From assembly GCA_030390025.1 (NCBI GenBank), contig CM059431.1, positions 144,152,001 through 144,216,000 on the forward strand: a DNA stretch of 64,000 nt. The letters are read 5' to 3'. How positions within the stretch are numbered: position 1 is the first letter of the stretch; each line of letters starts with the position of its first letter. Shown piece by piece: positions 8,278 through 63,840 of the stretch. The notes under the pieces were generated by a model. That model did no database searches. It was not told where the DNA came from and worked only from the letters and a program-made list of their open reading frames with translations. The position numbers and the translations under genes were made by a program. The stretch is from Squalus acanthias. Taxonomy: Eukaryota.

Positions 8278-8683
8278 AAGGAAATACTTGCATTTATAAA
8301 GAACCTTCGATGATTTCAGGACGTCCCAAAGCGCTTTGTAGCCACGTTTTACATTTTTGCTATTTTAATGTTAAAAACACAGCAGCCAAGATCTTTCAAA
8401 CCGCAATCTGATAATGACCAGATTATCTCTTTCAGTGATGTTGGTTCAGGGATAAATATTGGCCAGGAAACCGGGGAGAACTCCCCTGCTCTACTTCGAA
8501 ACAGTGCCATTGGATCTTTTACATCCACCTGAGAGAGCAGTTGCGGCCTCGGTTTAGCATTTCATCTGTAAAACGGCTCATCCGATAGTGCAGCTCTCCC
8601 TCAGTACAGCACTCGAGTGTCAGTCTGAATGAAACCTTCTGACTCAGAGGCGAGAGTGCTATCAACTGAGCCGCGGCTGACAC
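8278..8683 (-). mobile_element. tRNA-derived DeuSINE (SacSINE1-like), lying in the pseudogene intron
   Basis: Minus strand: GGCTCAGTTGATAGCACTCTCGCCTCTGAGTCAGAAGG head; body with GGTGGATGTAAAAGATCCAATGGCAC..GAGCAGGGGAGTTCTCCCCGG; tail AAAGCGCTTTGGGACGTCCTG..TATAAATGCAAGT. Confidence 0.8.
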
Positions 8684-8865
8684 TTTGGAAAATATAGAAA
8701 ATGATGTTAGTAGTGAAAAGGCTTGGAGATGATCGAAGGTGGTGTGGGGATCTGTAGAGTAAATGAAACTACGAGCGTGTAACGGTTAAGAGAGCAGATG
8801 GGAATAAATACGGACACATCGGATTGAAATGGATCAGAAAATATAAAAAGGAGGAAGTAACATTA

Positions 8866-9340
8866 AACAACAACAACAACTTGTATTTAGATAACGTCTT
8901 TAACGTATTAAAATGTCCCAAGGCGCTGCTCAGGAGTATTTTAAGAAAAACAATTTGACAGCGAGCTACTAAAGGATAAATTTGGACAGGCGACCAAAAG
9001 CTTGGTCAAAGAGGTAGGTTTTAAGGAGCGTTTCAAAGGAGGAAAGAGAGGTAGCGAGGTGGAGAGTATTAGGCAGGGAATCCCAGAGCTTTGGGTCTCG
9101 GCAACAGAAGGCACGAACACCAAAGGTTGAGCGATTATAATCAGGGATGCTCAAGAAGCAGAATTAAAGGAGCGCAGATAACTCGGGGTTGTGGTGCTGA
9201 AGGAGAATACAGAGATAGTGAAGGGCGCGGCCATGGAGGGATTTGAAAACAAGGATGATAATTTTGAAATCGAGGCGCTGCTTAACCGGGAGCCAATATA
9301 TGTCAGCGAGCACAGGGGTGATGGGCGAACGCGACTTGAT
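8866..9340 (-). mobile_element. L2-clade LINE 3' fragment
   Basis: (CAA)n tail at ~8866-8880. Minus-strand peptides SPITPVLADIYWLPVKQRLDFKIIILVFKSLHG and LWDSLP..SFETLLKTYLFDQAF. Confidence 0.88.
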
Positions 9341-10483
9341 GCTAGAATAAAGATTTCGGGAGAAATAACCGCCCCACCACGATAAACATCTTGACCGCCT
9401 ATCCAATGTCGGTCTGAATTGTAGAAAGTGGAAGCAGGATAGGGGAACGGGATTCTACAGCTGCAGCCACAGTAGATCGTGTGTTAAAATGTGACATGAT
9501 TCTGAACTAAATCATTTGTTTATACTTTATATTCTGAATACACATTTTAACCATCAGGATCATTTGGAAGGAAGCAGTTCTGATTGTGGCGCGCAGTCTT
9601 ATGACACACGGACTGTTGGAGCTGACTCAGATATTGACAGTGCATTTTGGAGATATACAGCGCAAGTGAGAATGCTTCGAACATTTAATTAAACTGAATG
9701 GTCAACATTACCGTGCCTTTAAATAAGAACTATTCTTACTATAGCATATGAGATTAATAATAACACACTGAATTTTCAGGGTAATACACAAGCACACATT
9801 GGTGATCTAACACCAGCTCCGGATTTAATCTGGAGATTGCTTGGGGCTCAGTATTGATAATAAATCCGGTCACCAGTGAACGTGTTACTTGTCAGACAAT
9901 AAAAGTCATTTATTGTTTGCGGAGCGAATCAATTCGCGAGAAAGCACTGCTCAAATTCACGTCCCAGCTTACCAGGGATAGAGAAGACTGTAACTGGTGG
10001 GCAGTGAACACCGAAAGGAATGTGAAGAGACAACTTTATAACAAACACGGAGAAACTCCTCATCATCTGGCAGGCACCAATAGAGATAATACAGTCTAAC
10101 ATCGCTCCATACAAAGCAATAACGGGTTAAAAGACTTACCTGGGACACCGATGGCTGTAATAATTAGGTAGAGAATTTCCGGGTAATCAATCATTGTATT
10201 TTAGTGTGAAATGTTTTCTTACAGGCCAACGTTACAGGATTCAGCCGAATTGAGACTCTGCTGGGAGTTATTCCAAATGATTAAAATTCATACAATGACT
10301 TTTGTTAGTCTTTAAATTTGAACAAACAGAAGACACCACCGGACAAATTTAGCACAAAACAATTGTATAATTTATACAGGTGATGTAGCGCGCTGTCACT
10401 CTATTTATTATAGAAGAAGGTGTGGATTCGGTCCTGCTTTAAGGTTCCATCCCAAGTGCATCTGAGATCCGAAAATTTTGCCC

Positions 10484-10562
10484 ATGTATAGACCACTCGG
10501 TGCCCCGGTGATAAAATCCGCTTACTCAATAACTGGCGTTAGTTACAGTCACTTAATAAACA
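10484..10562 (-). promoter_or_regulatory. Conserved GPCR-family promoter motif with degenerate TATA (TATACAT)
   Basis: Minus strand TTTATTAAGTGACTGTAACTAACGCCAGTTAT; GTAACTAA starts at 10546, TATA position 10490 (56 nt), the same spacing as at the other four loci. Confidence 0.65.
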
Positions 10563-10654
10563 AGGCAACATTTTCCGCTTCAGTGTCCTGGAACAAAATG
10601 GTGTAATAATGCACCTCGGTCCATAGATTCTACACTAACAGTACACAACTCTAT

Positions 10655-13322
10655 CATTACTGATGTTGACTCTACTCTAACATTACTGGTGGTGACCCTA
10701 CTGTAACATTACTGGTGGTGACACTACTTTAAGATTACTGGAGGTGAGCCTACTCTAATATTATTGGTGGTGACACTACTTTAAGATTACTGGACGTGAC
10801 CTAATTCTAACATTACTGGTGGTGACTCTACTCTAACATTACTGGTGGTGACTCTACACTAACGTTACTGGTGGTGACGCTAAACAAGCATTAGTGGTGG
10901 AGACCCAACTACATCGTTATTGGTGCTAACCCTACTCTAACATTACTGGTGGTGAACCTCTTCTAACTAAACTGATGATGACATTAATGCAACATTACTT
11001 TTGTTGACTCTACTCTAACAATACTGATGGTGAATATATTCTAAAATTACTGGCGGTGACCCTGCTATAACATTACTGGTGGTGTCCCTACTCTAACATG
11101 ACTAGTGGTGTCTCTACTTTAACATGATTGGTGGTGATTCTACTCTAACATTACTGGTGGTGACCCTACTCTAACATTGCTGGTGGTGACCCCACTCTAA
11201 CATTACTGTTGGTGACTCTACTCTAACATTACTGGTGGTGACCCTACTCTAAGATTACTGGTGGTGACTCTACTCTAACATTACTGGTGGTGACTCTGCT
11301 CTAACGTTACTGGTGGTGACCCAAAACTAACATTACTGGTGGTGACTCTACTATAACATTACTGTTGGTGACCCAAAACTTACATTACTGGTGGTGACTC
11401 TACACTAACATTACTGGTGGTGACCCAAATCTAACATTACCGGTGGTGACTCCACTCTAACATTACTGCTGGAAACCGCACCCTGACATTAATGCTGATG
11501 ACTCGGATTTAACTTTTAAATGTGGGCACGCTACTCTGACATTGCTGATTGTGACCAAACTGTAACATTACTGGTGCTGACTCAACTCTACCATAACTGG
11601 TGGTTACGATACGCTACCATTAATGTGGTGACTCTATTCTAACATTACTGGTGGTGTCCTTACTCTAACATTACTGGTGGTGATCTGACTCTATCATTAC
11701 AGGTTGTGGCGCTACTCTAACATTACTGCTTGTGACTATACCCTAACATTGCTGGGTATGACTCTACCCTCGTATTACTGGTTTTGACCTTACTCTAACA
11801 TTACTGGTGTTGACAATACTCTAGAATTGCTGTTGGTGGCCCTACTATGACATTACTAGGGTTGTGCCTACTCTAACATTACTGGTGTTGATTTTATGTT
11901 AGCGTTAATGTTGGTGTTTCTGCACTAACATTACTGGTGGTGAATCAAATCTAACCTAACTGATGATGACTTTAATGGAACATTACTGGTGCTGACACTA
12001 ATTTAACATTACTGGTGCTGATCATGCTTTAACATTACTGGTGGTGACTCGACTCCAACATTACTGGTGATGAACCTATTCTAACATTACTGATGATGAA
12101 CCTACTCAAGCATTAATGGTGATGATTCTTCTCTAACATAACTGCTGGTGACTCTAATCTAACGTTACTGGTGGTGACTATAAACTAAAATTGGTGGTGG
12201 TGCTCCTACTCTAACTTTATTGTAGGTGACTCTACTCTAATATAAATGGTCGAGATTCTACTCTAACATTACTGGTTGTCGCCCTACTCTAAAATAGCTG
12301 GTTTTGACCCTACTTTCACATTGCTGGTGGTGACACTACTCTAATGATAGAATAGGGTCATCAAGAGTAAAGTTAAATAGAATTCACAAGCAGTAATATT
12401 AGAGTAGAGTCAAAACCAGTAATGTTAGAACAGAATCATCACGAGAAAATTTAGGGCAGATTCACCACCAGTGTAAGTGTAGGGTCACAACCAGTAATGT
12501 TAGTGTCTGGACAACACAAGTAATGTTAGAATAATGCCACCACAAGTAATGTTAGAGTAGAGATACCACCAGTAATGATAGAGTAGAGCCACCAAAAGTA
12601 ATATTACTGTAGAGTCAGCACCAGTAACGGTAGAGTAGGGTCACCGCCTCTAATGTTACAGTCAGGTCAACACCAGTAAAGTTAGATTAGTTTGAACACC
12701 AGTACAAATAGAGTAGGATCACCGCCAGTAATGTTAGAGTAGGGTCACTACTAGTTATGTTAGAGTAGGGTCACCATCAGTAATTTTAGAGAATGTTCGC
12801 CACCTCTAATGTTACAGTCGGGTCAAAACCAGTAAAGTTAGATTAGATTCACCAGCAGTAACAATAGGGTAGGGTCACCACTAGTAATGTTACAATAGAT
12901 TTACGACGAGTAATGTTTGAGTAGGGACACCACCAGTATTGTCAGTGAGAGGTCACCACCAGCAATAAAACAGTAGGCTCTGCACAATTAATGTTAGAAT
13001 AGAATCACCACCAGTAACATTAGAGTAGGGTCACCACCAGTAATATTTGAGTAAGGTCGCCACCAGTAATGTTAGAATAGGGTCACAACTAGTACTGTTA
13101 GAGTAGGCTCACCACCATTAATGTTAGAGAAAGGTCACCACCTGTAATGTTGCAGTCGGGTCAAAACCAGTAAAGTTAGATTATGTTCACCACCAGTAAT
13201 GATAGGGGTGGGGGGGCGGGTCACCACTAGTAATGTTAGAGTAGGATCACTATCAGTAATGTTAGAGTCGGGTAACCACCAGTAATGTTTGAGTAGGGTC
13301 GACACTAGTAATATTAGTGTAG
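10655..13322. repeat. 26-bp satellite (CTACTCTAACATTACTGGTGGTGACC), about 100 degenerate copies, orientation flips at ~12345
   Basis: Period 26 (TGAC at 11161 and 11187). From ~12345 the array reads as the reverse complement (CCAGTAATGTTAGAGTAGGGTCACCA). Confidence 0.95.
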
Positions 13323-13325
13323 AAC

Positions 13326-16300
13326 GGGAACGGTAGCGTATTGGTAATGTCACTTGACTAGTAATCCACAGGCCTGGATTAATGATCCAGAGACGTGAGT
13401 GCAAATCCCACCACGGCAGCTGGGGAATTTAAATTCAGTTAATTAATTAAATCTGGAATAAAAAGCCAGTATCAGTAATATTAACCATGAAACTATCGGA
13501 TTTTCGTAAAAACCCATCTGGTTCACTAATGTCCTTTAGGTGAAAGAAATCTGCCGTCCTTACCAGGTCTGGCCGATATCTGAATCCAGACCCACAGCAA
13601 TGTGGTTGACTCTTAACTGCCCGCTGAAATGGTCAAACAAGTCACTCAGTTGTAACTAGCCGCTACGAAACAAAATAATAAGAATGAAACCGGACGGACC
13701 ACCCGGCATGAACCGCGGCACTGGCTACGGACACGGATACGGCACACCCAGCCCACTCAACCCTACAAAGTCCTCCTCACCAACATCTGGGGACTTGCCC
13801 CAATATTGGGAGATCTGTCCCACAGACTAGTCAAGCAACAGCCTGACATAGTCATACTCACAGAATCATACATTTCTGCCAATGTTCCGAACTCCTCCAT
13901 TACCATCCCTGGGTATGTCCTGTCCCACCGGCAGGACAGACCCACCAGGGGTGGCGGCACAATGGTATACAGTCGGGAAGGAGTGGCCCTGGAAGTCCTT
14001 AACATTGATTCTGGACCCAATGAATTCTCATGGATCCAAGTAAATTCAAACCTCCTGCTGATTGCCACCTACCGCCCTCCCTCAGCTGATGAAACAGTAC
14101 TCCTCCATGTTGAACACCACTTGGAAGAATCACTGAGAGTAGCAAGGGCACAGAATGCACTCTGGGTGGGGGAATTCAATGTACATCACCAAGCGTGGCT
14201 CGGTAGCACCACTACTGGCCGAGTCTTGAAGGACATAACTGCGAGTCTGGGCCTGCGACAGGTGGTGAGTGAACCAACACGAGGGAAAAACCTACTTGAC
14301 CTCGTCCTCACCAATTTACCTGTCACAGATGCATCTGTCCATGGCAGCTGTGACCACTGCACAGTCATTGTGGAGCCGAAGTTCCATCTTCACACTGAGA
14401 ATACTCTCCATCGTGTTGTGTGGAACTACCACCGTGCTAAATGGGATACATTCAGAACAGATCTAGCAGTTCAAAACTGGGCATCTATGAAGGCGCTGTG
14501 GGGCAGCAGCAGAATTGTATTTCACCACAATCTGTAACCTCATGGCCCGGCATATCACTCACTCTAGCATTACCACCAAGCCAGGGGACCAAACCGTGGT
14601 TCAACAACGAGTGTAGAAGAGCATGCCAGGAGCAGCACCAGGCGTACCTAAAAATGAGGTGCCAGCCTGGGGAAGCTGCAACACAGGACTACATGCATGC
14701 TAAAAAGTGGAAGAAGAATGCTATAAGACAGGGCTAAGCGATCCCACAATCAATACATCAGATCAAAGCTCTGCAGTCCTGCCACATCCAGTCGTGAATG
14801 GTGGTGGACCATTAAACAAGTAACGGGAGGAGGAGGCTCCAAGAATATCTGCATCCTCAATGATGGTGGAGCCCAGCACCTGAGTGCAAAAGACAAGGCT
14901 GAAGCGTAAGCAATCAACTTCAGCCATAAGTGCCAAGTGGATGATCCATATTGGCCTACTCCCGAGGTCCCCACCATCACAGAAGCCAGTCTTCAACCAA
15001 TTCGATTCAGTCCACGTGATATCAAGAAACGGCAGAACGCACTGGATATAGCAAAGGCTATGGGGCCCGAAAACATCGCGGCTATCGTGCTGAAGGCTTG
15101 TGCTCCAAAATTAGCTGCGGGTCTAGCTAAGCTTTTCCAGTACAGCTACAACACTAGCATCTATCCGACAATATGGAAAACTACCCAGGTATGTCCTGTC
15201 CACAAAAAGCAGGACAAATCCAACTCGGCCAATTAACGCCCCATCAGTCTACTCTCAATCATCAGCAAAGTGATGGAAGGTTTCATCGACAGTGCTATCA
15301 AGCAGCACTTACCCACCAATTACCAGCTCACTGATGTCCAGATTGGGTTCCGCAAAGACCACTCAGGTTCCGCAAAGACCACTCGGCTCCCGACCTAATT
15401 ACAACCTTGTTCCAAACATGGACAATGGAGCTGACTTCCAGATATGAGATGAGAGTGCCTGCCCTTGACATCAGGGCAGCATTTGAACGAGTGTGGCATC
15501 AAGGAGCCCTAGTAAAAATGAAGTCATTGGGAATCGGGTGAGGGGGCTAAATCTTAAATGGCTGGAGTCATACCTAGTGCAAAGGAAGATGGCGGCGTTG
15601 TTGGATGTCAAACATCACAGGCCCAGGACATCGCAGCAGGAGTTCCTTAGGGCAGCGTCCAAGGCCGAACCATCTTCAGCTGCTTCGTCAATGACCATCC
15701 CTCCATTATAATGTCAGAAGTGGGGAAGTTCGCTGATGACTGCACTGGCTTCAGTGCCATTCGCAACTCCTCAGATAATGAAACAGTTCATGCCCACATG
15801 CAACAAGACCTGGTCAACGTTCAGGCTTGGGCTGATAATTGGCAGGTAATATTCGCGCCACACAAGTGACAGGCAATTACTATCTCCAACAAGTGAGCTT
15901 CTAACCAACGCCCCCTGACATTCAACGGCATTACCATCGCCGAATGCTCCACCATTAATATACTGGGGATCTTCATTGACCAGAAACTTAATACTATGGC
16001 AACAACAGCAGGTCAGAGGCTGGCTATTCGACGGCGAGTGTCTCACCTCCTGACTCCCCAAAGCCTTTCCGCCAACTGCAAGGCGCAAGTCAGGAGTGTG
16101 ATGGAACACTCTGCACTCGCCTGGATGAGTGCAGCACCAACAACACTCAAGAAGCTCGACACCATCCAAGACAAAGCAGCCCGCTTGATTGGCAACACAT
16201 CCACTACCTTAAACATTCACCCCGTCCACCAACATGCGCGCCCTGACTGCAGTGGGTACCGTCTACAAGATGCACTGTAGCCAAGGCTTTTTCCGCAGCA

Positions 16301-16612
16301 CCTCACAAACTAGCGACCTCTACCACATAGAAGGACAAGGGCAGCAGGCGCATGGGAACACCACCACATCCAAGTTCCCCTCCAAGTCACACACCATCCT
16401 CACTTGGAAGTATATCGCCATTGCGTTATCGTCGCTGGCTCAAAATCCTGGAACTCCCTCCCTAATAGCACTGTGGCATTACCTTCACCACACTGACTGC
16501 AGCTTTTCAAGAAAGCTGCTCACCACCAGCTTCTCAACGTCAACTACAGATGGACAATAAATACTGGCCATGCCAGCGTCGCCCACATCCCATGAACGAA
16601 CGTAAAAACAAA
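13326..16612 (+). mobile_element. Degraded CR1/L2-group LINE (APE + RT) preceded by a tRNA-derived SINE-like head
   Basis: 13326-13660 is a tRNA-SINE-like head and body. APE motifs PDIVILTESY..IPGYVLSHRQDRPTRGGG and VGEFNVHH; RT motifs KAMGPENI and KFADD. 3' end CAATAAATACTGGCCATGCCAGCGTCGCCCACATCCCATGAACGAA followed by an A-rich tail. Confidence 0.88.
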
Positions 16613-16619
16613 CAGAGCA

Positions 16620-18665
16620 GCACTGTCACATCTAGTGTTAGTGTAGGGGTACCACTAGTACCGGAGGTGCACGATCGGCTCTTTTATAATTTTAGGGTTA
16701 CGACTATTAGGAGAGGTGCACGGTTAGAATTAATGTCAGTGTAGTGACACCAATATGACTATAGGAGCACGACAATATCGAGTGGAAGTTGATCGCACCA
16801 CCAGCACCAGACGTGTCTGGTCATCTCTTGCATAAGTGCAGTGTACCACTAGTACCATAGCAGCACGATCAGCTCTCGTGTAAGTGTAGCGTTCCACCAG
16901 TACCTGAGGAGCCCGGCCAACTGTACAGTAAGAGTAGTGTTCCACGAGTACCTAAGGAGCACGGTCAACTGTAGTGTAAGTGTAGGCTTCCACTAGTACC
17001 CGAGGAGCACGGGCAACTGTAGTGTAAGTGTAGGGTTCCACTAGCACCCGAGGTGCACGGTCAACTGTAGTGTAAGTGTAGGGGTCCACTAGTACCTGAG
17101 GAGCACGGTCAATTGTAGTGTAAGTGTAGGGTTCCAGAAGTACCTGAGGAGCACGGTCAAATGTAGTGTAAGTGTAGGGTTCCACTAGTACCTGAGGAGC
17201 ATGGTCAAATGTAGTGTAAGTGTAGGGTTCCACTAGTACCTGAGGCTCACGGTCAACTGTAGTGTAAGTGTAGCGTTCCACTAGTACCCGAGGAGCACGG
17301 TCAACTGTAGTGTAAGTGTAGCGTTCCACGAGTACCTGCGAAGCACGGTCAACTGTAGTGTAAGTGTAGGGTTCCACTAGTACCTGAGGAGCACGGGCAA
17401 CTGTAGTGTAAGTGTAGCGTTCCACTAGTACCCGAGGAGCACGGTCAACTGTAGTGTAAGTGTAGCGTTCCACGAGTACCTGCGAAGCACGGTCAACTGT
17501 AGTGTAAGTGTAGGGTTCCACTAGTACCTGAGGAGCACGGTCAACTGTAGTGTAAGTGTAGCGTTCCACGAGTACCTGCGGAGCACGGTCAACTGTAGTG
17601 TAAGTGTAGGGTTCCACTAGTACCTGAGGAGCACGGTCAAATGTAGTGTAAGTGTAGCGTTCCACGAGCACCTGAAGAGCACGGTCAACTGTAGTGTAAG
17701 TGTAGGGTTCCAGGAGTACCCGAGGAGCACGGTCAAATGTAGTGTAAGTGTAGAGTTCCAGGAGTACCTGAGGAGCACGGTCAAATGTAGTGTAAGTGTA
17801 GGGTTCCAGGAGTACCTGAGGGGCACGGTCAAATGTAGTGTAAGTGTAGGGTTCCACTAGTACCCGAGGAGCAAGATCAACTGTAGTGTAAGTGTAGGGT
17901 TCCACTAGTACCTGAGGTGCACGTTCAACTGTAGTATAAGTGTAGCGTTCCAGGAGTACCTGTGGAGCACGGTCAGCTGCAGTGTAAGTGTAGGGTTCCA
18001 CTAGTACCTGAGGCTCACGGTCAATTGTAGTGTGAGTGTAGGGTTCCACTAGTACCTGAGGAGCACGGTCAACTGTAGTGTAAGTTTAGGGATCCACTAG
18101 TACCTGAGGAGCACGGTCAACTGTAGTGTAAGTGTAGGGTTCCACGATTACCTGAGGAGCACGTCAACTGTAGTGTAAGTTTAGGGATCCACTAGTACCT
18201 GAGGAGCACGGTCAACTGTAGTGTAAGTGTAGGGTTCCACGATTACCTGAGGAGCACGTCAACTGTAGTGTAAGTGTAGGGTTCCACTAGTATCTGAGGA
18301 GCACGGTTAACAGTAGTGTAAGTGTAGGGTTCCACGAGTACCTGAGGAGCGCGGTCAACTGTAGTTTAAGTGTAGGGTTCCACTAGTACCTGAGCAGCAC
18401 CTTCAACTGTAGTGTAAGTGTAGGGTTCCACTAGTACCTGAGGAGCACGGTGAACACTGGTGCAAGTGTAGCGTACACTAATAACGAAGGATACATCTAG
18501 TTTAAGTGTAGGATTACCACTAGTGCCAGTGGAGCACGTTCACATCTATTTACGTGTAGAGTTACAAGTATTGCAGGAGGAGCACGCTGACTTCTAGTAT
18601 AAGTTACCCACTTAGCGGAGGGGCACGGTCACATCCAGTATAAGTGTAGGGGTAACACCACACTT
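16620..18665. repeat. 48-bp minisatellite (CTAGTACCTGAGGAGCACGGTCAACTGTAGTGTAAGTGTAGGGTTCCA); about 33 homogeneous copies at ~16890-18465 with degenerate flanks
   Basis: 48-bp periodicity is directly visible and produces the 16-aa repeat ORF 16952-18049. Confidence 0.97.
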
Positions 18666-18679
18666 AAACTAGGATGTAA

Positions 18680-20104
18680 CAAGAGGTAGCAAATGTAACA
18701 CCGCTATTCAAGAAAGAATGGAAAGAAAAAACAGGGAACGACTGGTCAGTTAGCCTGACCTACATCGTCGGGAAAATGCTGGAATCCACTATTAAGGAAG
18801 TGGTAACAGGGCACTTAAAAAATTATAATATGATTAGGCAGAGTCAACATGTTTTTATGAAAGGGAAATCGTGATTTACAAATGTATTAGTTATTTGAGG
18901 ATATAACTAACAGGATTGACAAAGGGGAACCAGTGGATGAAGTAGATTTCGATTTTCACAAGGCATTTGATAAGGTGCCACACGAAAGGTTGTTACACTA
19001 GATAAGGGATCATGGGGTTGGGGGTAATATGTTAGCCTGAACAGAGGATTGATTAAAGGAAAGATAACAGACACCAGTTGTAAACGGGACATTTTCAGCT
19101 GGGCAGGCTACTAAGGATCATTGCTGGGGCCTCAGCTATTTGCAATCTATATTAATCGCTTAGATGGATGTAATGTATCCAAGTTTCTGGCGATACAGAA
19201 CTAGGTTGGAAAGTAACATGTGAGGAGGACACACAGAGTGTGCAAAGTGATATAGCCAGTTATAGAGAGTGGGCAAGAACATGGCAGCTGGAGTATAATG
19301 TGGGGAAATGGAAGGTTATTCACTTTGGTAAGAAGCACAGAAAATATTACTATTTTGAAATGGTGAGAAACAATTAAATGTTGGTGTTCAGAGAGATTTA
19401 AGTGTCCTCGTAAAGGAAACAGAGAGAGTTACCATGCAGGCAGAACAAGCAATTAAGAAGGCAAATGGCATGTTGGTCTTTATTCCAAGGGGGGTTGGAG
19501 TACAAGAGTAAGGAAATTTTGCTGTAATTGTACAGGCCTTTGGTGGGAGACCACACCTTGAGCACTGTGTACAGTTGTGATCTCCTTTTCTAAGACAGGA
19601 TACACTGGCATTAGAGGAGGTGCAACAAAGGTTCACTAGATTGATTCCTGGGATGAGACAGTTGTCCTATGAGGAGAGATTGAGTTGATTGGTCCTATAC
19701 TCTCTATAGTTTAGAAGAATGAGAGGTGATCTCATTGAAACATATAATATTCTTAGGGTAGATGCTGAGAGCTTGCTTCCCCTAGCTGGAGAGCCTAGAA
19801 ATATGGGGATAGCCTCAGGATAAGGAGTCGGCCATGTAAGACTGACATGAGGAGAAATGTCTTCCCTCAGAGGATTTTGAATCTTTGGAATTCTCTACTC
19901 CAGAGGGCAGTGAATGCTCAGCCGTTGAGTATATTCAAGGCGGAGATAGATAGATTTTGGACTCTAAGGGAATCAAGGGATATGGGTATCGGGCGGCAAA
20001 GTGGATTTGAGGTCGAATATCAGCCAATATCTTATTGAAAGGCGGGGCAGGCTCGAAGGGCGGTATGGACTACCCCTACTCCTATTTATTATGTTCCTAT
20101 GTTC
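18680..20104 (+). mobile_element. 5'-truncated, degraded CR1 LINE inserted in the satellite field
   Basis: CR1 RT-like sequence (GGCATTTGATAAGGTGCCACAC; AGAAGAATGAGAGGTGATCTCATTGAAAC); tail TATGTTCCTATGTTC at ~20090-20104. Satellite continues on both sides. Confidence 0.9.
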
Positions 20105-20772
20105 TAGTGTACTATCATTCGAAGAGCACAATCAGCTGTGTTATAATGTTAGGGGTGCAACTGATACTGGAGGTGCACGGTCAACGCTAGTGTTAGTGCA
20201 GCGATACGACTATTACTGTAGGAGCACGCTCAACTGTAGTGTAAGTTTAGGGGTACTACTAGTACAAGAGGAGCACGGTCACAACTAGTGCAACTGCAGA
20301 GCACCGCTAATAGCAGAGGGACAAGGTTACCTCTAGTGTAAGTTCAGGGATACTATGAATACACGAGGAACATGGTCAGCTCTAGTGTAATTGCAAAGCA
20401 CCGCTAATAGCGGAGCGGCACGGTAACCACAAGTTCAAATGCAGGTATACTTCTAGTACCGGTGGAGAACGGTCATCCCTAGTGTAAGTGTACGGGCACC
20501 ACTTGTGCAGGTCGAGCACACGCACATGTAGTGTAATTGCAAGGTTAGCATTAGTACTTGAGCAGCACGGTCAATACTAGTGTCAGTGTAGTGCTACCAC
20601 TATTACCATTGGACCACATTGAACTCTACTGTAAGTGTAGGGTGCCAGAACGACAGCAGGAGCATGGTCATCTTTAGCGTAAGTGTAGAGTACCACTATA
20701 CCAGAGAAGACGGTTACCTCTAGTGTAAGTGTCGGCTACCACTATACCGGAGGAGACAGCCACCTCTAGTGC
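20105..20772. repeat. Degenerate continuation of the 48-bp satellite
   Basis: Recurring GAGCACGGTCA..CTAGTGTAAGTGTAG motifs at ~48-50 bp spacing. Confidence 0.85.
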
Positions 20773-21046
20773 GGACTGACTGTGCTCATCACCAGTATTG
20801 AAGGATTTGTTTCACCGCCTGTTCTGAAGGAGTTGGTGCACTAGGTGAATCATGGGCAGGATCAGGACGAATATTGCAAGGTGAGCTACCTTCATCACGC
20901 CTGTAGGAATAGAGTCAGAGCTAGTACTGGAAGATTTCACTTTCCACTTGTAAACAATGTTTCAATTTTTTAACTTTACTATAATAATTTCACCTATTTC
21001 TCTTAATCTGACGTATCAGACAAGAAAAACAACTTACCTGAGTCTA

Positions 21047-21125
21047 TTTGTTAAATGACTGTAACTAATGCTAATTATGATTTAACCTGATTGACACCTT
21101 GGAGGATTGAAGTGAGTATAAATAT
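21047..21125 (+). promoter_or_regulatory. Putative GPCR promoter: conserved motif plus TATA box
   Basis: TTTGTTAAATGACTGTAACTAATGCTAATTAT; GTAACTAA at 21061, TATAAAT at 21117, 87 nt before the ATG. Confidence 0.7.
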
Positions 21126-21203
21126 AGGTTCCCTTACATTGCTTCAGCCCTGCGCCAGTCAGAGTCTTTCATCTCCTGCAGAATTCATCCATTCTCACAG
21201 AAA

Positions 21204-22624
21204 ATGGGTCAACAAACTATTTTGCTAATCAAAGAGAGTTACTACCCGATCCTCGCAGCTGTCGGTGTCCCCGGTGAGCCATTGTAACCTGTTTGTTGTT
21301 AATCGGCGTTAACTGTCTCCTCTTCATACAGCCTGTTGGCTAATGTAACGTGATTTCTAGATGTCAACATTCCACAGTCGGTAGTAACTGGAACCAACTA
21401 ATGAACCGGGTGTCCGCACTTTCCAAGTTTCCCTTAATTCGATAATATCACTGATGTTACAATGTTCTTTGGAGCTCCAACACAAGGATTTTAGCTGATT
21501 TCCGGACCGTCTTGTCCCCCCGTGCAGAGTGAGCGCTGCAGCAGCTCATTAAAATGTGTGGGTGGGTTTCCCAGGTAATGGCTCCAAAACTAACCTGTTC
21601 TCACACTGCTCCGTGTAGATAATCACACTGAATGGAGCAAAATGCTCTCAACAGTTTTCTCCATATATATTTCAAAACAGACACTGGAAATTTATTTCTC
21701 TCCTCTCTGTTTCTTACAGCGAATTTGGTGACAATGGTGATTCTGTCCCTAGGAAACTGCAGACTTTCCAAGTGTATCTCTGTCTACATGGTGGCCATGG
21801 CAACAGCAGATCTACTGGTCATGATCTTCAATGTAATGATGTATTATATATTCAGTTATCACTTTCCACTTTCATTCCTGTCCCACACTCCCGTGTGTAA
21901 GTTCATTCTATACATGACTGCTGTCACCATCGATTTGTCTGTTTGGTTCACCGTTTCATTCACATTTGACCGATTTGTAGTTATCTGCTGCCAGAAGTTT
22001 AGAACAAAGTATTGCACCGAGAAAACTGCGGCCGGGGTTATAGCAAACGTCTCGATCCTAATTTTTTTAAAGGACATCCCCGTATTGTTTGCATTTGAAC
22101 CTGAACAAATAATTAACAAGGTGCAGTGGGGCTGCCGGAATAGTGTGGCTTTTTTTTCCTCATCTCCTGGTGTAGCGTACGTCTGGTTTTATTCTGCCTC
22201 GGTCGTTTGTATTCCCTTTACATTAATTATCTTATTTAATAGTTTGACAGTCAGCCGTATTTTAGTGGCAAGTAGAGCCCGCAGGGGACTCCGGGGCCAC
22301 AGTAGTGAAAATCAGAGCGATCCAGAGATGGAGAACCGAAGGAAATCCATCATTTTACTGTTCACTGTATCGGGCAGTTTTATATTGTTGTGGCTGACAA
22401 CTGCCGTGAGTTTTGTAACTACCAGACTGACAAACACGACTTATTACCGAGGTGACCGCACAGACCCTGCATATATCGCCACTGAAACCGGAGCAATGCT
22501 GAAGCATTTGAGCTCCTGTCTAAACCCGTGTATTTATGCAGCGACCCAGAGGAAATTCAGAGAAGAGCTGAAGAATGTTGTGAAATCTCCCTGGACACTG
22601 ATTCTGAGATTAGCTGGAAAATGA
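21204..22624 (+). CDS. Intact orphan class-A GPCR, GPR139/GPR142-like, 324 aa; exon 1 21204-21273, exon 2 21720-22624
   Basis: Exon 1 MGQQTILLIKESYYPILAAVGVP, phase-1 GT-AG intron of 446 bp (CCG|GTGAGC..TTCTTACAG|CG), then ANLVTMVIL. Motifs: TM2 MATADLLV, PVCKF, FTFDRFVVICC, ECL2 WGC, RRKSIILLF, SCLNPCIY and a helix-8-like RKFREELK. Confidence 0.93.
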
Positions 22625-23299
22625 GGATGAAAAGAATCAAGTCAAACGAGATCTTCCTCGTAAGTAAAGCTCAATTTCAACTCCTTTTCAATCGTAGACA
22701 ATCCTTCTTTCTGGTAATGTGAAAAATGGGTGAGTTATTGTGTAAACATTTCTTCCATTTTGCAGCATGCATTGATTTCTGCTTTGCTTTCTTTTTCTAC
22801 GCTTCTTTCGTTGAATAAACATAACCTATTCCTGCAACTTTAGCACATTTCACCTTCAGGGATCAAAGATAACAATGATGAGGTTCAGCAGTGGAGTCGG
22901 ACATGTGGGTAATAGAGGAATCCACGTTACACTGCAGGATCGGGCGCGCCACTTTAAAATCATCAATAAAGTTTTATTTAGTGCCTTAACGATCAAAGGT
23001 CTTGCGATCCCCGATATTGGTAACTGTGCTGGAAGTTTCGTGTGAATAATTCAGGCACGGGTTTCTCTATCGGACTCCATTCCTCATTGACAAATAAAGC
23101 GGGCTCTTGTCCCGTGATCAGTGTTCGAATGGAGGAAACAGTTCGTAACTCGGCTCATCGAAGTGAACTTTCACCTATTTTGCCCCAGAAACAGACGTAA
23201 ATTCTCGATTGTACACTGACTGGTGTCTCTCACTCAGCACAAAGATGGAGTCTGCTCTTGTTTTGTGCTGCCGATAAAAGTATCATGAGTAATATTATT

Positions 23300-26475: not shown

Positions 26476-26499
26476 GAACATGCGGTCTTTCAAGAATTC

Positions 26500-32810: not shown

Positions 32811-32849
32811 GATTTAACAAGTTGAAGGGATAGCCTCTCCACAACATCT

Positions 32850-50572: not shown

Positions 50573-51979
50573 TCACAGAATCAGTGTCCAGGGAGATTTC
50601 ACAACATTCTTCAGCTCTTCTCTGAATTTCCTCTGGGTCGCTGCATAAATACACGGGTTTAGACAGGAGCTCAAATGCTTCAGCATTGCTCCGCTTTCAG
50701 TGGCGATATATCCAGGGTCTGTGCGGTCACCTCGGTAATAAGTCGTGTTTGTCAGTCTGGTAGTTACAAAACTCACGGCAGTTGTGAGCCACAACAATAT
50801 AAAACTGCCCGATAAAGTGAACAGTAAAATGATGGATTTCCTTCTGATCTCCATCTCTGGATCGCTCTGATTTTCACTCCTGTGGCCCCGGAGTCCCCTG
50901 CAGGCTCTACTTGCCACTAAAATACGGCTGACTGTCAAACTATTACATAAGACAATTAATGTAAAGGGAATACAAACGACCGAGGCAGAATAAAACCAGA
51001 CATACGCTACACCAGGAGGTGAGGAAAAAAAAGCCCCACTATTCCGGCAGCCCCACTGCACCTTGTTAATTATTTGTTCCGGTTCAAATGCAAACAATAC
51101 GGGGATGTCCTTTAAAAAAATTAGGATCGAGACGTTTGTTATAACCGCGGCCGCAGTTCTCTCGGTGCAATACTTTGTTCTAAACTTCTGGCAGCAGATA
51201 ACGACAAATCGGTCAAATGTGAAGGAGACGGTGAACCAAACAGACAAATCGATGGTGACAGCAGTCATGTATAGAATGAACTTACACACGGGAGTGTGGG
51301 ACAGGAATGAAAGTGGAAAGTGATAACTGAATATATAATACATCATTACATTGAAGATCATGACCAGTAGATCTGCTGTTGTCATGGCCACCATGTAGAC
51401 AGAGATACACTTGGAAAGTCCGCAGTTTCCTAAGGAGAGAATCACCATTGTCACCAAATTCGCTGTAAGAAACAGAGAGGAGAGAAATAAATTTCCAGTG
51501 TCTGTTTTGAAATATATATGGAGAAAACTGTTGAGAGCATTTTGCTCCATTCAGTGTGATTATCTACACGGAGCAGTGTGAGAACAGGATTAGTATTGGA
51601 GCCATTACCTGGGAAACCCACCCCCACATTTTAATTAGCTGCTGCAGCGCTCACTCTGCACGGGGGGACAAGACGGTCCGGAAATCCGCTAAAATCCTTG
51701 TGTTGGAGCTCCAAAGAACATTGTAACATCAGTGATATTATCGAATTAAGGGAAACTTGGAAAGTGCGGACACCCGGTTCATTAGTTGGTTCCAGTTACT
51801 ACGGACTGTGTAATGTTGACATCTAGAAATCACGTTACATTAGGCAACAGGCTGCATGAAGAGGAGACAGTTAACCCCGATTAACAACAAACAGGTTACA
51901 ATGGCTCACCGGGGACACCGACAGCTGCGAGGATCGGGTAGTAACTCTCCTTGATTAGCAATATAGTTTATTGACCCAT
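50573..51979 (-). pseudogene. GPR139/GPR142-like GPCR, mirror copy of 21204-22624, with nonsense mutations (exon 1 51979-51910, exon 2 51462-50573)
   Basis: Exon 1 reads ATG GGT CAA TAA (stop at codon 4, plus-strand 51968-51970; CAA in the left copy). A second AGA-to-TGA change at 50573-50575 removes the last 5 aa. Splice sites are intact and exon 2 is otherwise open. Confidence 0.85.
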
Positions 51980-52057
51980 TTTCTGTGAGAATGGATGAAT
52001 TCTGCAGGAGATGAAAGACTCTGACTGGCGCAGGGCTGAAGCAATGGAAGGGAACCT

Positions 52058-52136
52058 ATATTTATACTCACTTCAATCCTCGAATGTGTCAATCAGGTTA
52101 AATCATAATTAGCATTAGTTACTGTCATTTAACAAA
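52058..52136 (-). promoter_or_regulatory. Putative GPCR promoter: conserved motif plus TATA
   Basis: Minus strand TTTGTTAAATGACAGTAACTAATGCTAATTAT; core starts at 52122, TATAAAT at 52066 (56 nt). Confidence 0.68.
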
Positions 52137-52409
52137 TAGACTCAGGTAAGTTGTTTTTCTTGTCTGATACGTCAGATTAAGAGAAATAGGTGAAATTATT
52201 ATTGTAAAGTTAAAAAATTGAAACATTGTTTACAAGTGGAAAGTGAAATCTTCCAGTACTAGCTCTGACTCTATTCCTACAGGCGTGATGAAGGTAGCTC
52301 ACCTTGCAATATTCGTCCTAACCCTGCCCATGATTCACCTAGTGCACCAACTCCTTCAGAACAGGCGGTGAAACAAATCCTTCAATACTGGTGATGAGCA
52401 CAGTCAGGC

Positions 52410-53078
52410 CGCACTAGAGGTGGCCGTCTCCTCCGGTATAGTGGTAGCCTACACTTACACTAGAGGTAACCGTCTTCTCTGGTATAGTGGTACTCTACAT
52501 TTACGCTAAAGATGACCATGCTCCTGCTGTTGTTCTGGCACCCTACACTTACAGTAGAGTTCAATGTGGTCCAATGGTAATAGTGGTAGCACTACACTGA
52601 CACTAGTATTGACCGTGCTGCTCAAGTACTAATGCTAACCTTGCAATTACACTAGATGTGCGTGTGCTCGACCTGCACAAGTGGTGCCCGTACACTTACA
52701 CTAGGGATGACCGTTCTCCACCGGTACTAGAAGTATACCTGCATTTGAACTTGTGGTTACCGTGCCGCTCCGCTATTAGCGGTGCTTTGCAATTACACTA
52801 GAGGTGACCATGTTCCTCGTGCACTCATAGTATCTCTGAACTTACACTAGAGGTAACCTTGTCCCTTTGCTATTAGCGGTGCTCTGCAGTTGCACTAGTT
52901 GTGACCGTGCTCCTCTTGTACTAGTAGTACCCCTAAACCTACACTAGAGTTGAGCGTGTTCCTACAGTAATAGTCGTATCGCTGCAATAACACTAGCGTT
53001 GACCGTGCACCTCCAGTATCAGTTGCACCCCTAACATTATAATAGAGCTGATTGTGCTCTTCCAATGATAGCACACTA
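52410..53078. repeat. Degenerate 48-bp satellite (mirror of 20105-20772)
   Basis: Recurring TACACTTACACTAG and TGACCGTGCTC motifs. Confidence 0.85.
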
Positions 53079-55260: not shown

Positions 55261-55269
55261 GCTTCTCCG

Positions 55270-58558: not shown

Positions 58559-58560
58559 GT

Positions 58561-61500
58561 TCTACTCTAATATTACTGGTGTCGACCATACTCTAACATT
58601 AATGGTGGCGAACTTACTCAAACATTTTTCTGGTGAACCTACTCTAACATTACTTGTGGTGAGCCTACTCTAACAGTACTAGTTGTGACCCTATTCTAAC
58701 ATTACTGGTTGCGACCTGACTCAAACAATACCGGTGGTGACCCTACACTAACATTACTGGTGATGAGTCTATTCTAACATTACTAATGGTGATACTACAT
58801 TAACATTACTGGTGGTGACTCTACTCTAACATTACTGGTGGTGACTCTACACTAACATTACTGGTTGTGACCCTATTCTAACATTACTGGTGGTGACCCG
58901 TTTCTAACGTTACTGATAGTAATGCTACTCTAACATTACTAGTGGTGACCCTACCCTATTATTACTGGTGGTGAACCTAATCTAACATTACTGGTTTTGA
59001 CCCGACTGCAACATTACAGGTGGTGACCATTCTCTAACATTAATGGTGATGAACCTAATCTAACAGTACTAGTTGTGACCCTATTCTAACATTACTGGTG
59101 GCGACCTTACTCAAATATTACTGGTGGTGACCCTACTCTAACATTACTGGTGGTGATTCTATTCTAACATTAATTGTGCAGAGCCTACTGTTATATTGCT
59201 GGTGGTGACCCCTCACTGACAATACTGGTGGTGTCCCTGCTCAAACATTACTCGTCGTAAACCTACTGTAACATTACTAGTGGTGACCCTACCTTATTAT
59301 TACTGGTGGTGAATCTAATCTAACTTTCCTGGGTTTGACCCGACTGTAACATTACAGGTGGCGACCATTCTCTAACATTACTGATGGTGACCCTACTCTA
59401 ACATAACTTGTAGTGACCCTACTCTAACATTACTGGCGGTGATCCTACTCTATTTGGAGTGGTGTTCAAACTAATCTAACTTTACTGGTGTTGATCTGAC
59501 TTTAACATTAGAGGCGGTGAACATACTCTAACATTAGAGGTGGTGAACATACTCTAACATTAGAGGTGGTGAACATACTCTAACATTAGAGGTGGTGACC
59601 CTACTCTAACGTTACTGGTGCTGACTCTACAGTAATATTACTTTTGGTGGCTCTACTCTATCATTACTGGTGGTATCTCTATTCTAACATTACTTGTGTT
59701 GTCGAGACACTAACATTACTGGTTGTGACCCTACACTTACACTGGTGGTGAATCTGCCCTAAATTTTCTCGTGATGATTCTGTTCTAACATTACTAGTTT
59801 TGAATCTACTCTAATATTACTGCTTGTGAATTCTATTCAACATTATTCTTGATGACCTTATTCTATCATTAGAGTAGTGTCACCACCAGCAATGTGAAAG
59901 TAGGGTCAAAACCAGCAATTTTAGAGTAGGGCAACAACCAGTAATGTTAGAATAGAGTCACGACCATTTATATTAGAGTAGACTCACCAACAATAATGTT
60001 AGAGTAGGATCACCATCACTAAAATGAGTGCATAGTCACCACCAGTAACGTTAGAGTAGAGTCACCAGCAGTTATGTTAGAGAAGAATCATCACGATTAA
60101 TGCTTGAGTAGGTTCATCATCAGTAATGTTAGAATAGGTTCATCACCAGTAATGTTGGAGTCGAGTCACCACCAATAATGTTAGAGCAAGATCAGCACCA
60201 GTAATGTTAAATTAGTGTCAGCACCAGTAATGTTCCATTAAAGTCATCATCAGTTAGGTTAGATTTGATTCACCACCAGTAATATTAGTGAAGAGACACC
60301 AACATTAACGTTAATATAAAATAAACACCAGTAATGTTATAGTCGGCACACCCCAAGTAATGTCATAGTAGGGCCACCACCAGCAATTCTAGAGTATTGT
60401 CACCACCAGTAATGTTAGAGTAAGGTCACATCCAGTAATGCGAGGGTAGAGTCATACCCAGTAATGTTAGAGTATAGTCACCAGCAGTAATGTAAAAGTA
60501 GGCACACCCCTAGTAATGTCATAGTAGAGCCACCACCCGCAATTCTAGAGTATTGTCAACACCAGTAATGTTAGAGTAAAGTCAAAAGCAGTAATTCTAC
60601 GGTAGAGTCATACCCAGTCATGTTAGAGTATAGTCACCAGCAGTAATGTTAGAGTAGCGCCACCACCTTTAATGATAAAGTAGAATCACCAACAGTAACG
60701 TTAGAGCAGCGTCACCAACAGTAATGTTAGAGTAGGGACACCACCAGTAATGTTAGAATAGAGTCACCACCAGTAATGTTAACGTATCGTAACCACCAGT
60801 TATAATAGAGTTGAATCAGCACCAGTAATGTTGCAGTTTGGTCACAATCAGCAATGTCAGAGTAGCATGCCCACATTTAAAGTTAAATCCGAGTCATCAG
60901 CATTAATGTCCGTGTGTGGTTTCCAGCAATAATGTTAGAGTAGAGTCACCACCAGTAATGTTAGATTAGGGTCACCACCAGTAATGTTAGTTTTGGGTCA
61001 CCACCAGTAATGTTAGAGTAGAGTCACCACCAATCATGTTAAAGTAGAGACACCACCAGTCATGTTAGAGTAGGGGCACCACTAGTAATGTTATAGTAGG
61101 GTCACCGCCAGTAATGTTAGAATAAATTCACCAACAGTATTGTTAGAGTAGAGTCAACAAAAGTAATGTTGCATTAATGTCATCCTCATTTTAGTTAGAA
61201 GAGGTTCAACAACAGTAATGTTAGAGTAGGGTCAGCACCAATAACGAGTTAGTTGGGTCACTACCAGTAATGCTTGTGTAGAGTCACCACCAGTAACGTT
61301 AGTGTAGAGTCACCACCAGTAATGTTAGAATAGGGTCACCTCCAGTAATCTTAAAGTAGTGTCACCACCAGTAATGTTAGAATATGGTCACCTCCAGTAA
61401 TCTTAAAGTAGTGTCACCACCAGTAATGTTAGAATAGGGTCACCATCAGTAATCTTAAAGTAGTGTCACCACCAGTAATGTTAGAATAGGGTCACTTCCA

Positions 61501-61615
61501 GTAATCTTAGAGTAGTGTCATCACCAGTAATGTTAGAGTAGGGTCACCACCAGTAATGTTAGTGTAGGGTCACCACCAGTTTTGTTAGAGTACAGTCAAC
61601 ACCAGTAATGATAGA
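58561..61615. repeat. 26-bp satellite, orientation flips at ~59868 (mirror of 10655-13322)
   Basis: Same unit and the same flip junction (TTCTATCA|TTAGAGTAG). Confidence 0.95.
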
Positions 61616-61705
61616 GTTGTGTACTGTTAGTGTAGAATCTATGGACCGAGGTACATCATTACACCATTGGTGTTTCAGGACACTGAAGCGCAAAATCTTG
61701 CCTTT

Positions 61706-61782: not shown

Positions 61783-62071
61783 GGGTAACATTTATGGATC
61801 TCAGATGCACTTGGGATGGAACCTTAAAGCAGTACAGGATCCACACCTTCTTCTATAATAAATAGAGTGACAGCGCGCTACATCACCTGTATAAATTATA
61901 CAATTGTTTTGTGCTAAATTTGTCCGTTGGTGTCTTCTGTTTGTTCAAATATAAAGACGAACAAAAGTCGTTGTATGAATATTAAACATTTGGAATAACA
62001 CCCAGCAGAGTCTCAATTCGGCTGAATCCTGTAACGTCGGCCCGTAAGAAAACATCTCACACTAAAATACA

Positions 62072-62126
62072 ATGACAGATTACCTGGAAATTCTCCACCT
62101 AATTATTACAGCCATCGGTGTCCCAG
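62072..62126 (+). CDS. Exon 1 of a GPR139/GPR142-like GPCR locus; exon 2 not in the window, functional status unknown
   Basis: MTDYLEILHLIITAIGVP followed by phase-1 donor CCAG|GTAAGT; mirror of 10194-10140. Confidence 0.7.
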
Positions 62127-62924
62127 GTAAGTCTTTATCACCAGTTATTGCTTTGTATGGAGCGATGTTAGACTGTATTATCGCTATTGGTGCCTGCCGG
62201 ATGATGAGGAGTTTCTCCGTGTTTGTTATAAAGTTGTCTCTTCACTTTCCTTTGGGTGTTCACTGCCCACCAGTTACAGTCTTCTCTGTCCCTGGTAAGC
62301 TGGGACTTGAATTTGAGCAGCGCCTTATCGCGAATTGATTCGCTCCGCAAACAACCAATGACTTTTATTGTCTGACAAGTAACACGTTCACTGGTGACCG
62401 GATTTATCATCACTACTGAGCCTCAAGCAGTCTCCAGAATAGATCCGGAACTGGTGTTAGATCACCAATGTGTGCTTGTGTATTACCCTGAAAATTCAGA
62501 GTGTTATTATTATTCTCATATGCTATAGTAAGAATAGTTCTTATTTAAAGGCACGGTCATGTTCCCCATTCAGTTTAATTAAATGTTCGAAGCATTCTCA
62601 CTTGCGCTGTATATCTCCAAAATGCACTGTCAATATCTGAGTCAGCTCCAACAGTCCGTGTGTCATAAGACTGCGCGCCACAATCAGAACTGCTTCCTTC
62701 CAAATGATCCTGATGGTTACAATGTGTATGCAGAATATAAAGTATAAACAAATGATTTAGTTCAGAATCATGACACATTTTAACACATCATCTACTGTAG
62801 CTGCAGCTGTAGAATCCCGTTCCCCTATCCTGCTTCCACTTTCTACAATTCAGACCGACATTGGGTAGGCGGTGAAGATGTTTACTGTGGTGGGGGGGTT
62901 AATTTCTCCCGAAATCTTTCTTCT

Positions 62925-63402
62925 AGCATCAAGTCCCGTTCGCCCATCACGCCGGTGCTCGCTAACATATATTGGCACCCGGTTAAGCAGCGCCTCGATT
63001 TCAAAATTATCATCCTTGTTTTCAAATACCTCCACCGCCTCGCCCCTCCCTTTCTCTGTAATCTCCTTCAGCCCCATAACCCCCTGAGTTATCTGCGCTC
63101 CTTTAATTCTGCCCTCTTGAGCATCCCTGATTATAAGACTCAATCATTGGTGGCCGTACGTTCTGTTGCCTAGGCCATAAGCTCTGGAATTCCCTGCCTA
63201 AACCTCTCCACCTCGCTACCTCTCTTTCCTCCTTTAAGACGCTCCTTAAAACCTACCTCTTTGACCAAGCTTTTGGGCGCCTGTCCAAATTTAACCTTTA
63301 GTGACTCGCTGTCAAATTGTTTGTCTTAAAATACTCCTGAGCAGCGCCTTGGGACATTTTACTACGTTTAAGACGTTATATAAATACAAGTTGTTGTTGT
63401 TG
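62925..63402 (+). mobile_element. L2 3' fragment (mirror of 8866-9340)
   Basis: WHPVKQRLDFKIIILVFKYLH; (GTT)n tail at ~63390-63402. Confidence 0.88.
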
Positions 63403-63595
63403 TTTATTGTTACTTCCAACTTTTAATATTTTCTGATCCAGTTCAATCCGATGTGTCGGTATTTATTCCCATCTGCTCCTTTAACCTTTACACGGTCGTA
63501 GTTTCATGTATCTTCTATCCTCTACAGAGCCCCAGACCACATTCGATCATCTGCAAGTCTTTTCAATATTAACATACTTTTCTATATTTTCCACA

Positions 63596-63840
63596 GTGTC
63601 AGCCGCGGCTCAGTTGGTAGCACTCACGCCTCTGAGTCAGAAGGTTTCATTCTGGCTGACACTCCAGTGCATTCTTGAGTGAGTGCTGCACTGTCGGAGG
63701 AGCCGTTTTTCAGATTAAATGCTAAACCGAGGCCGCAACTGCTCTCTCAGGTGGATGTAAAAGATCCAATGGCACTGTTTCGAAGTAGAGCAGGGGAGTT
63801 TTCCCCGGTTTCCTGGCCAATATTTATCCCTCAACCAACA
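63596..63840 (+). mobile_element. DeuSINE 5' part (mirror of 8439-8683), cut by a CR1
   Basis: GTGTCAGCCGCGGCTCAGTTGGTAGCACTC..TATTTATCCCTCAACCAACA, then an abrupt switch of sequence. Confidence 0.8.

Follow-up and report, generated by a model that had tools for sequence, protein, structure and literature searches.

An old, probably autosomal inverted duplication in a shark cluster of GPR139-like receptor genes, with a probable origin at CR1 elements and probable later local conversion

Background

Among the closest described systems to the locus reported here are the palindromes of the primate X chromosome, which by the definition used in PMC8327919 have arms of at least 8 kb that are at least 99% identical; those described there have arms of 8-140 kb and spacers of 77 bp-358 kb, and their spacers invert often. 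Others are human rearrangements of the type DUP-TRP/INV-DUP (duplication-triplication/inverted-duplication), in which inverted Alu pairs about 85% identical mediate template switches and leave a chimeric repeat (PMC11293582), and origin-dependent inverted-repeat amplification (ODIRA) (PMC10766186). Here we analyse 64,000 nt of Squalus acanthias (assembly GCA_030390025.1, contig CM059431.1, positions 144,152,001 to 144,216,000 of the forward strand), called the window below, with position 1 as its first letter. The window is shark DNA, mostly pieces of long interspersed nuclear elements (LINEs) and tandem arrays, and holds a large palindrome with genes for GPR139-like GPCRs (G-protein coupled receptors) within its arms and spacer. 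We consider it moderately probable that this palindrome is an old inverted segmental duplication, probably on an autosome, within a cluster of GPR139-like shark receptors that evolves by birth and death, and that it was primed by LINEs of the CR1 family and later converted locally.

Like the X and Y palindromes of primates and mouse (PMC8327919; 10.1101/800185), the locus has arms of over 8 kb (26.6 and 25.8 kb), a short spacer, genes in both arms and spacer, and a sign of arm-to-arm conversion. Unlike them, its arms are 93% identical, the conversion-like signal covers 2.6 of 26 kb, one arm gene is dead, and the locus is probably autosomal. The likeness to junction 1 of DUP-TRP/INV-DUP (PMC11293582) and to ODIRA (PMC10766186) lies in an inverted copy joined via facing repeats, with what looks like a chimeric repeat where they meet and a unique segment retained between the two. 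The human DUP-TRP/INV-DUP cases are recent, pathogenic and near-identical, whereas the shark duplication is old (6.6% divergence), with CR1 LINEs 3 kb apart as its probable mediators, and a second junction and third copy are only putative here.

Results and Discussion

The inverted duplication

Comparison of the window with itself gave one long anti-diagonal, made up of the following parts.

Left arm, 8438-35043, plus strand: 26.6 kb, from self-BLAST and global alignment.
Right arm, 38036-63841, minus strand: 25.8 kb, the reverse complement of the left arm and 93.15% identical to it.
Spacer, 35044-38035: 2,992 bp.

Self-BLAST returned collinear minus-strand blocks at 8438-13323/63841-58846 (86.3%), 12391-17371/59435-54526 (86.0%), 17933-34692/55248-38602 (92.1%) and 34690-35043/38383-38036 (87.0%). 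In the global alignment the arms differ by 1,713 mismatches in 24,990 columns and by 84 indel events; without the tandem arrays, identity is 93.41% (20,886 columns). Divergence is heterogeneous, with 250-bp windows outside the arrays running from 85.9 to 98.8% identity, and the longest perfect run between the arms is 154 bp. The largest gaps are 1,296 and 233 bp, both changes of array length, and 221 bp in the innermost LINE. There are 72 indels outside the arrays, and other deletions, of 13-36 bp, are dispersed along the arms. The presence of an inverted duplication in the sequence is thus confirmed, and outside one probable local conversion tract its arms are decaying. A first-pass annotation of this DNA, made from the letters alone, had proposed arms of about 26 kb around a spacer of about 3 kb, which is what we measured. 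Its estimate of 88-97% identity by segment holds broadly, 500-bp windows covering a somewhat wider range (81.6-98.2%), and its view that the duplication is real and older, not a fold-back artefact, is supported by the 6.6% divergence and by the occurrence of both arm types in public contigs.

Substitutions outside the arrays comprise 589 transitions and 798 transversions. Fewer transitions than transversions is unusual for a vertebrate. The public contigs described below are alike in this respect (113 vs 139 in X1, 86 vs 108 in X5), and the low transition share looks like a property of these genomes. At 101 of 789 CpG sites the opposite arm carries TG or CA. Nucleotide diversity (pi) is reported as 0.002 in the epaulette shark (PMC10587355); the arm divergence of 6.6% is about 30 times as large. 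An absolute date was tried and dropped, as the direct shark mutation rate of 7e-10 per generation given in the same source would lead to an implausible figure of about 47 million generations.

Four public runs (3 samples from 3 studies) were compared, as contigs only, over positions 30750-38900. The evidence comes from the best 32 of 166,598 records and from 40 of 317 letter rows; the comparison used 31 left-arm rows, leaving out 9 spacer rows, together with 16 records from the mostly non-LINE part of the arm. Contig depth was not taken as copy number. Public runs contain up to 52% of the words of the spacer. In the four compared, 27 of the 31 letter differences listed in the left arm are the right-arm letter. 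X1 has a left-type contig with a single other letter over a stretch with 10 differences between the arms, as well as right-type contigs with 9 other letters over stretches with 9 such differences. X1 record 8 spans the right junction, with 121 and 42 letters on its sides and 9 other letters and 1 gap in 162; X5 record 24 (3 other letters in 326) nearly does so, with 30 letters on the LINE side, one below the bridging rule. At the left junction the crossing contig is X6 record 29, from another organism, with 50 and 100 letters on its sides and 12 other letters in 150. Both arm types and both adjacencies therefore exist outside the source assembly, and since the contigs found at each junction are diverged, both adjacencies look old.

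In three runs, right-like arm contigs over 30750-32850 and the right end of the spacer (37006-38065) had 2.5-5 times the depth of left-like contigs, and one contig of 1,782 bp fits for only 248 bases; these observations perhaps reflect further recent copies of a unit made of right arm plus spacer. Two apparent joints that skip the spacer (35018/35021 to 38036) have only 22 letters on one side, within CR1 tails, and were set aside as family noise.

The inner junction and its CR1 elements

The inner ends of both arms coincide exactly with the 3' simple-repeat tail of a CR1 LINE, and the elements concerned are these.

Inner CR1 LINE of the left arm, 32850-35043, plus strand: probably chimeric; 221 bp are missing at 34689/34690, and the 3' tail forms the end of the arm.
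Inner CR1 LINE of the right arm, 38036-40480, minus strand: the 221 bp are present (38383-38604), and here too the 3' tail forms the end of the arm.
Remnant of the 48-bp tandem array, 35043-35134, plus strand: 92 bp, immediately after the tail of the left CR1 and before the spacer gene.

Within the inner CR1, 96 of 1,820 columns (5.3%) differ between the arms ahead of the 221-bp gap, and 40 of 348 (11.5%) beyond it (Fisher p=5e-5). The best change-point falls at 34714, with a support interval of 34623-34738 (permutation p=0.003), and a CR1 in the middle of the arm that served as control has no such step (71/1,076 vs 23/353). Before the gap, the two arms have in common letters that are rare among the contigs of the family (33223, 33720), which suggests that this part of the CR1 was a single insertion that was then duplicated. 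The CR1 that belongs to the arm gene lies inside the 48-bp array, with array on both sides; at the left inner CR1 the remnant stands behind the 3' tail, and no 48-bp array was found at the 5' end.

These features suggest the following course of events. Two CR1s of one subfamily, inserted earlier, would have flanked the spacer gene and pointed towards each other. A replication fork that broke or stalled in one of them may then have invaded the other and copied backwards, and in this way an inverted copy of the downstream flank (today's right arm) would have come to lie ahead of the spacer gene. In this scheme the left CR1 is the site of the chimeric junction; the switch would fall at about 34623-34738, and the 221 bp would have been skipped. 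This is the most economical reading, and we hold it to be reasonably probable that a template switch between two independent facing CR1s primed the duplication.

The receptor genes

Pfam 7tm_1 was found in three open reading frames (ORFs) of the window. All three receptor genes have two exons, with a 70-nt exon 1, a GT-AG intron of 422-447 nt and a long exon 2, so that the single long ORFs are not equal to the genes.

Left-arm GPR139-like GPCR gene, 21204-22624, plus strand: intact, 324 aa; exons 1 and 2 at 21204-21273 and 21720-22624, with an intron of 446 nt between them.
Spacer GPR139-like GPCR gene, 35572-36983, plus strand: intact, 329 aa; exons 1 and 2 at 35572-35641 and 36064-36983, with an intron of 422 nt between them.
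Right-arm receptor copy, 50558-51979, minus strand: pseudogene; exons 1 and 2 at 51979-51910 and 51462-50558, with an intron of 447 nt between them.

A TATA-like motif lies ahead of each (at 21118, 35486 and 52065, respectively). An intron in transmembrane helix 1 (TM1) is probably held in common with GPR139. The first-pass annotation was right to place an intact receptor gene in the loop and to call it the more divergent one, as the spacer protein is identical to the left-arm protein at 253 of 324 residues, with synonymous divergence (dS) 0.27 and non-synonymous divergence (dN) 0.12. It overlooked the death of the right-arm copy, which has stops at codons 4 and 320 and is altered at conserved sites: A51T (A in 116 of the 120 homologs listed) and R211C (R in 119 of 120). 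The left-arm copy also departs from the consensus, for example with R at position 38 (G in 107 of the 120), so that its function is not assured.

With exon 2 of the spacer gene as query, 2,095 matches were found among 3,297 candidates. The 120 matches listed are all from sharks, at 62-80% identity, and nearly all are named 'probable G-protein coupled receptor 139', a name that is automatic in shark RefSeq and UniRef entries, for which the searches made gave no description of function; the exon-1 pattern, a short N-terminus with the TM1 motif, occurs in 56 of them. In a quick tree of 123 proteins, which contained no true GPR139, the window genes fall inside the shark family, the two arm copies are sisters (support 100), and the spacer protein pairs with the sawshark protein P0013 (support 96). 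This grouping makes the spacer gene an old paralog and not a product of the duplication event. The window genes are thus predicted to encode rhodopsin-type seven-transmembrane proteins nested among the shark 'probable GPR139' proteins. Human GPR139 (PDB 7vug, 9m42) is the best solved structure for a single protein (E 2.8e-5), which has 0 matches in PDB at E 1e-10, and for a family profile (E 2.3e-15, the next being 1.4e-12). F109, H187, W241 and N271 are reported to be required for activation of GPR139 by Trp and Phe (PMC5430874). As read from the alignment, the spacer protein keeps two of these four residues (H and W) and the left-arm protein one, and compared with human GPR139 the window receptors are distant.

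Summed contig depth over the receptor and intron (35374-37005) was 1,600-15,700, against tens for single contigs, which points to a very large number of paralogs that are at least 91% identical. Literature searches, which left supplements and most subscription papers outside their reach, found no paper describing a shark expansion of this family. The word 'gpr' is absent from the main text of the catshark and zebra shark genome papers, and its sole match in the Squalomix preprint is GPR91, though the supplementary list of tandem clusters of that preprint could already include the family. The word 'shark' is absent from a GPR139 review and from a vertebrate GPCR survey. The receptor family is the larger lead and merits a study of its own, and it seems undescribed in the literature searched. 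Sharks are reported to have very few OR, ORA and TAAR genes (PMC11979771); if these receptors are sensory, they would be an added repertoire for such a group.

A low-divergence tract around the arm genes

Around the duplicated receptor the arms are more alike than elsewhere.

Low-divergence tract, probable conversion, 20141-22736: 62 of 2,596 columns (2.4%) differ; covers 48-bp array, upstream DNA, intron and gene; right-arm counterpart at about 50450-53040.

Its parts diverge as follows: array 16/636 (2.5%), upstream DNA 7/429 (1.6%), intron 9/445 (2.0%) and exon 2 2.8%. The middle of the arm differs at 700 of 9,661 columns and the larger flanking segments at 6.6-7.3% (permutation p=0.002 for the tract). 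The simplest reading is a single conversion at roughly a third of the age of the duplication, because the tract includes non-coding DNA that is 15-36 differences per 100 away from that of the spacer gene, and one dead copy. The upstream DNA of the arm gene is 78.5% identical to that of the spacer gene and so is not strongly constrained. A later, single ectopic conversion from arm to arm would thus have made 2.6 kb around the duplicated receptor nearly identical again; the right copy now carries two stops and the arms are otherwise diverging, both of which are observed.

The stretch 21500-22000, which takes in the intron's 3' half and the first helices and was compared with about 35840-36340, has only 3-9 differences per 100 from the spacer gene, against 10-36 per 100 elsewhere in the cassette. 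This is possibly an older conversion or a constrained intron element.

Seen in this way, the inverted duplication is a readable fossil of gene-cluster growth, with a probable LINE-to-LINE template switch, conversion limited to a cassette, and loss of one copy. This is known biology in a new lineage and an ordinary route by which a large gene family grows. What the window holds is a real, old and decaying inverted duplication in a receptor cluster, and its LINE-primed origin is probable.

The outer end of the arms

The outer end of the right arm meets a CR1 piece, whose nearest match lies near the start of the window.

CR1 reverse-transcriptase piece, 63837-64000, plus strand: at the outer end of the right arm, with a 5-bp overlap with the arm end (63837-63841).
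Young-looking CR1, 193-2290, plus strand: its 508 codons hold one stop and no frameshift; the piece at 63837 has its nearest match here.

In direct orientation, 63837-64000 and 917-1080 are identical at 154 of 164 positions (10 differences, 6.1%, of which five are synonymous). In the 508 codons of the CR1 at 193-2290 there is 1 disabling change, against 4.4 expected at the age of the arms (P=0.066). Since an apparently young CR1 piece starts at 63837, positions 8438 and 63841 may not be the true outer ends. The end at 63841 is more likely to be a younger, 5'-truncated CR1 insertion than the true end, in which case the arms may extend beyond the window. The outer-end repeat may be a short interspersed element (SINE) continuing left of 8438, a part missing from its other copies in the window.

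Alternative explanations

Several observations weigh against the history proposed here. Windows of 350 columns with at least 45 mismatches occur at 2.7% of arm positions, so the step in the inner CR1 is not extreme, and conversion that stalls at heterology such as a large indel would leave the same step. No target-site duplication was seen by eye at either inner CR1. Among the contig records listed, none links both arms across 30750-38900, so that the arrangement of the arms in cis is unsupported by contigs; right-like contigs are 2.5-5 times deeper than left-like ones in three runs; and several contigs are intermediate (5/8, 11/17 and 4/8 differences), two of them retaining 36 bp that are missing from the right arm. 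Further copies or allelic variation are likely. As to the tract, the synonymous divergence of the arm genes (about 4.9%, 11 changes in the codon list) is not clearly below that of the flank, the intron is also conserved against the spacer gene (372/420 identical), and constraint or conversion from other family members could contribute.

In a plain inverted duplication, one CR1 would have been copied with the arm, with the breakpoint at its simple-repeat tail, the 221-bp gap being a later deletion and the step a matter of chance or the edge of a conversion. The heterogeneous divergence of the arms and the other deletions of 13-36 bp scattered in them are compatible with this, but the match of the change-point to the 221-bp gap, the control CR1 without a step, the presence of array on a single side of the left CR1, and the diverged contigs that cross both junctions are not what it would lead one to expect, and we give it a minor though real chance of being correct. 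It is unlikely that the locus is a fixed DUP-TRP/INV-DUP, in which the fork, having copied backwards to 8438, switched once more, to 917, and ran forward; positions 917-8437 would then recur in direct orientation past 64000, along with a third arm and a further spacer. The 6.1% divergence of the outer CR1 piece is indeed indistinguishable from the 6.6% of the arms, its 5-bp overlap recalls the 1-9 bp of microhomology reported at human junction 2 in 14 of 24 samples (PMC11293582), and the public contigs include copies of the spacer at 92-94% as well as intermediate arm types. However, the CR1 at 193-2290 looks like a young family by its single disabling change, synonymous changes make up five of the 10 differences, CR1s occur in extremely high numbers, and diverged spacer-like contigs are expected from any large family. 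That an assembly error joined two haplotypes, or distant paralogous blocks, through CR1 copies is very improbable. Both junctions do lie within a LINE of very high copy number, no listed contig spans 30750-38900, and the best match at the right junction, X5 record 24, is short on the CR1 side; against this, the 6.6% divergence and the 72 non-array indels are far above allelic differences, left-type and right-type contigs occur in one run, and inner CR1s that differ by 5-11% and a 221-bp gap should be resolvable by long reads.

The low-divergence tract might instead reflect purifying selection or conversion from other family members, in place of exchange between the arms. The 3-9 differences per 100 from the spacer gene at 21500-22000 and the many close paralogs indicated by the summed depth fit such an explanation, yet the tract also holds a tandem array and the upstream DNA that is far from the spacer gene's, one copy is a pseudogene, and the left and right copies are sisters with full support; we regard it as unlikely, if credible enough to be kept in mind. 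The first-pass annotation had taken the arms for a substrate of arm-to-arm conversion and framed the locus as an ampliconic or sex-chromosome palindrome whose spacer gene may flip between haplotypes. Conversion is supported locally, at 20141-22736, with the rest of the arms decaying, and the framing is not supported. A palindrome of this kind, maintained by conversion, deserves very little credence: arm and spacer sizes are within the range of primate X palindromes and there is one local conversion-like tract, but identity is 93.15% and not at least 99%, the signal of conversion is one 2.6-kb tract at 2.4% and not arm-wide, one arm gene is dead, and homologs with a recorded contig lie on contigs of up to 376 Mb, the zebra shark X being reported as about 17 Mb (PMC10620051). 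The inverted duplication is probably autosomal. A literature search on shark palindromes found nothing relevant, and an elasmobranch sex-chromosome preprint is without the string 'palindrom'. With no perfect run above 154 bp, flipping of the spacer is probably rare now; it is possible in the past, since the arms did interact, and as a flip would turn gene and promoter together between near-equivalent flanks, little effect would be expected. The low-divergence tract starts at the array edge (20141). A broader scheme, in which this is a very large shark family with a putative sensory (chemoreceptor-like) role, facing CR1s seed inverted duplications or triplications of its receptor cassettes, and the satellite array preceding every gene sets off conversion, so that promoter and gene stay similar as the flanks decay, is quite improbable as a whole.

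Tandem arrays and other repeats

The tandem arrays are the following.

26-bp tandem array, 10648-13322: orientation reverses at about 12343; right-arm copy 58562-61617, with reversal at about 59869.
48-bp array, 16615-20771: a CR1 from a different subfamily breaks it up at about 18700-20107; the right-arm copy is shorter by 1,296 bp.

About 4 bases separate the two directions of the 26-bp array at each reversal, which is a small fold-back in each arm, older than the large duplication. A relationship between the 26-mer and the 48-mer was not shown (score 29 against a shuffled maximum of 31). On the minus strand of the 48-bp array, 16952-18085 is an open frame of 377 aa made of a 16-residue repeat; its shorter right-arm copy has no Pfam match, and the frame is probably read-through of a period divisible by three.

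No other genes were recognised in the arms. Frames were surveyed from stop to stop over 2300-38100, where those of at least 110 aa are, by eye, LINE pieces, array read-through or noise; 9 ORFs were scanned against Pfam, and Rfam and ARAGORN gave 0 matches each. Within each arm there is also a direct repeat about 70% identical (23424-23935 and 26483-27032). Decayed LINE pieces of other clades, with reverse-transcriptase and endonuclease frames, lie at 2595-4875 and 13331-16574.

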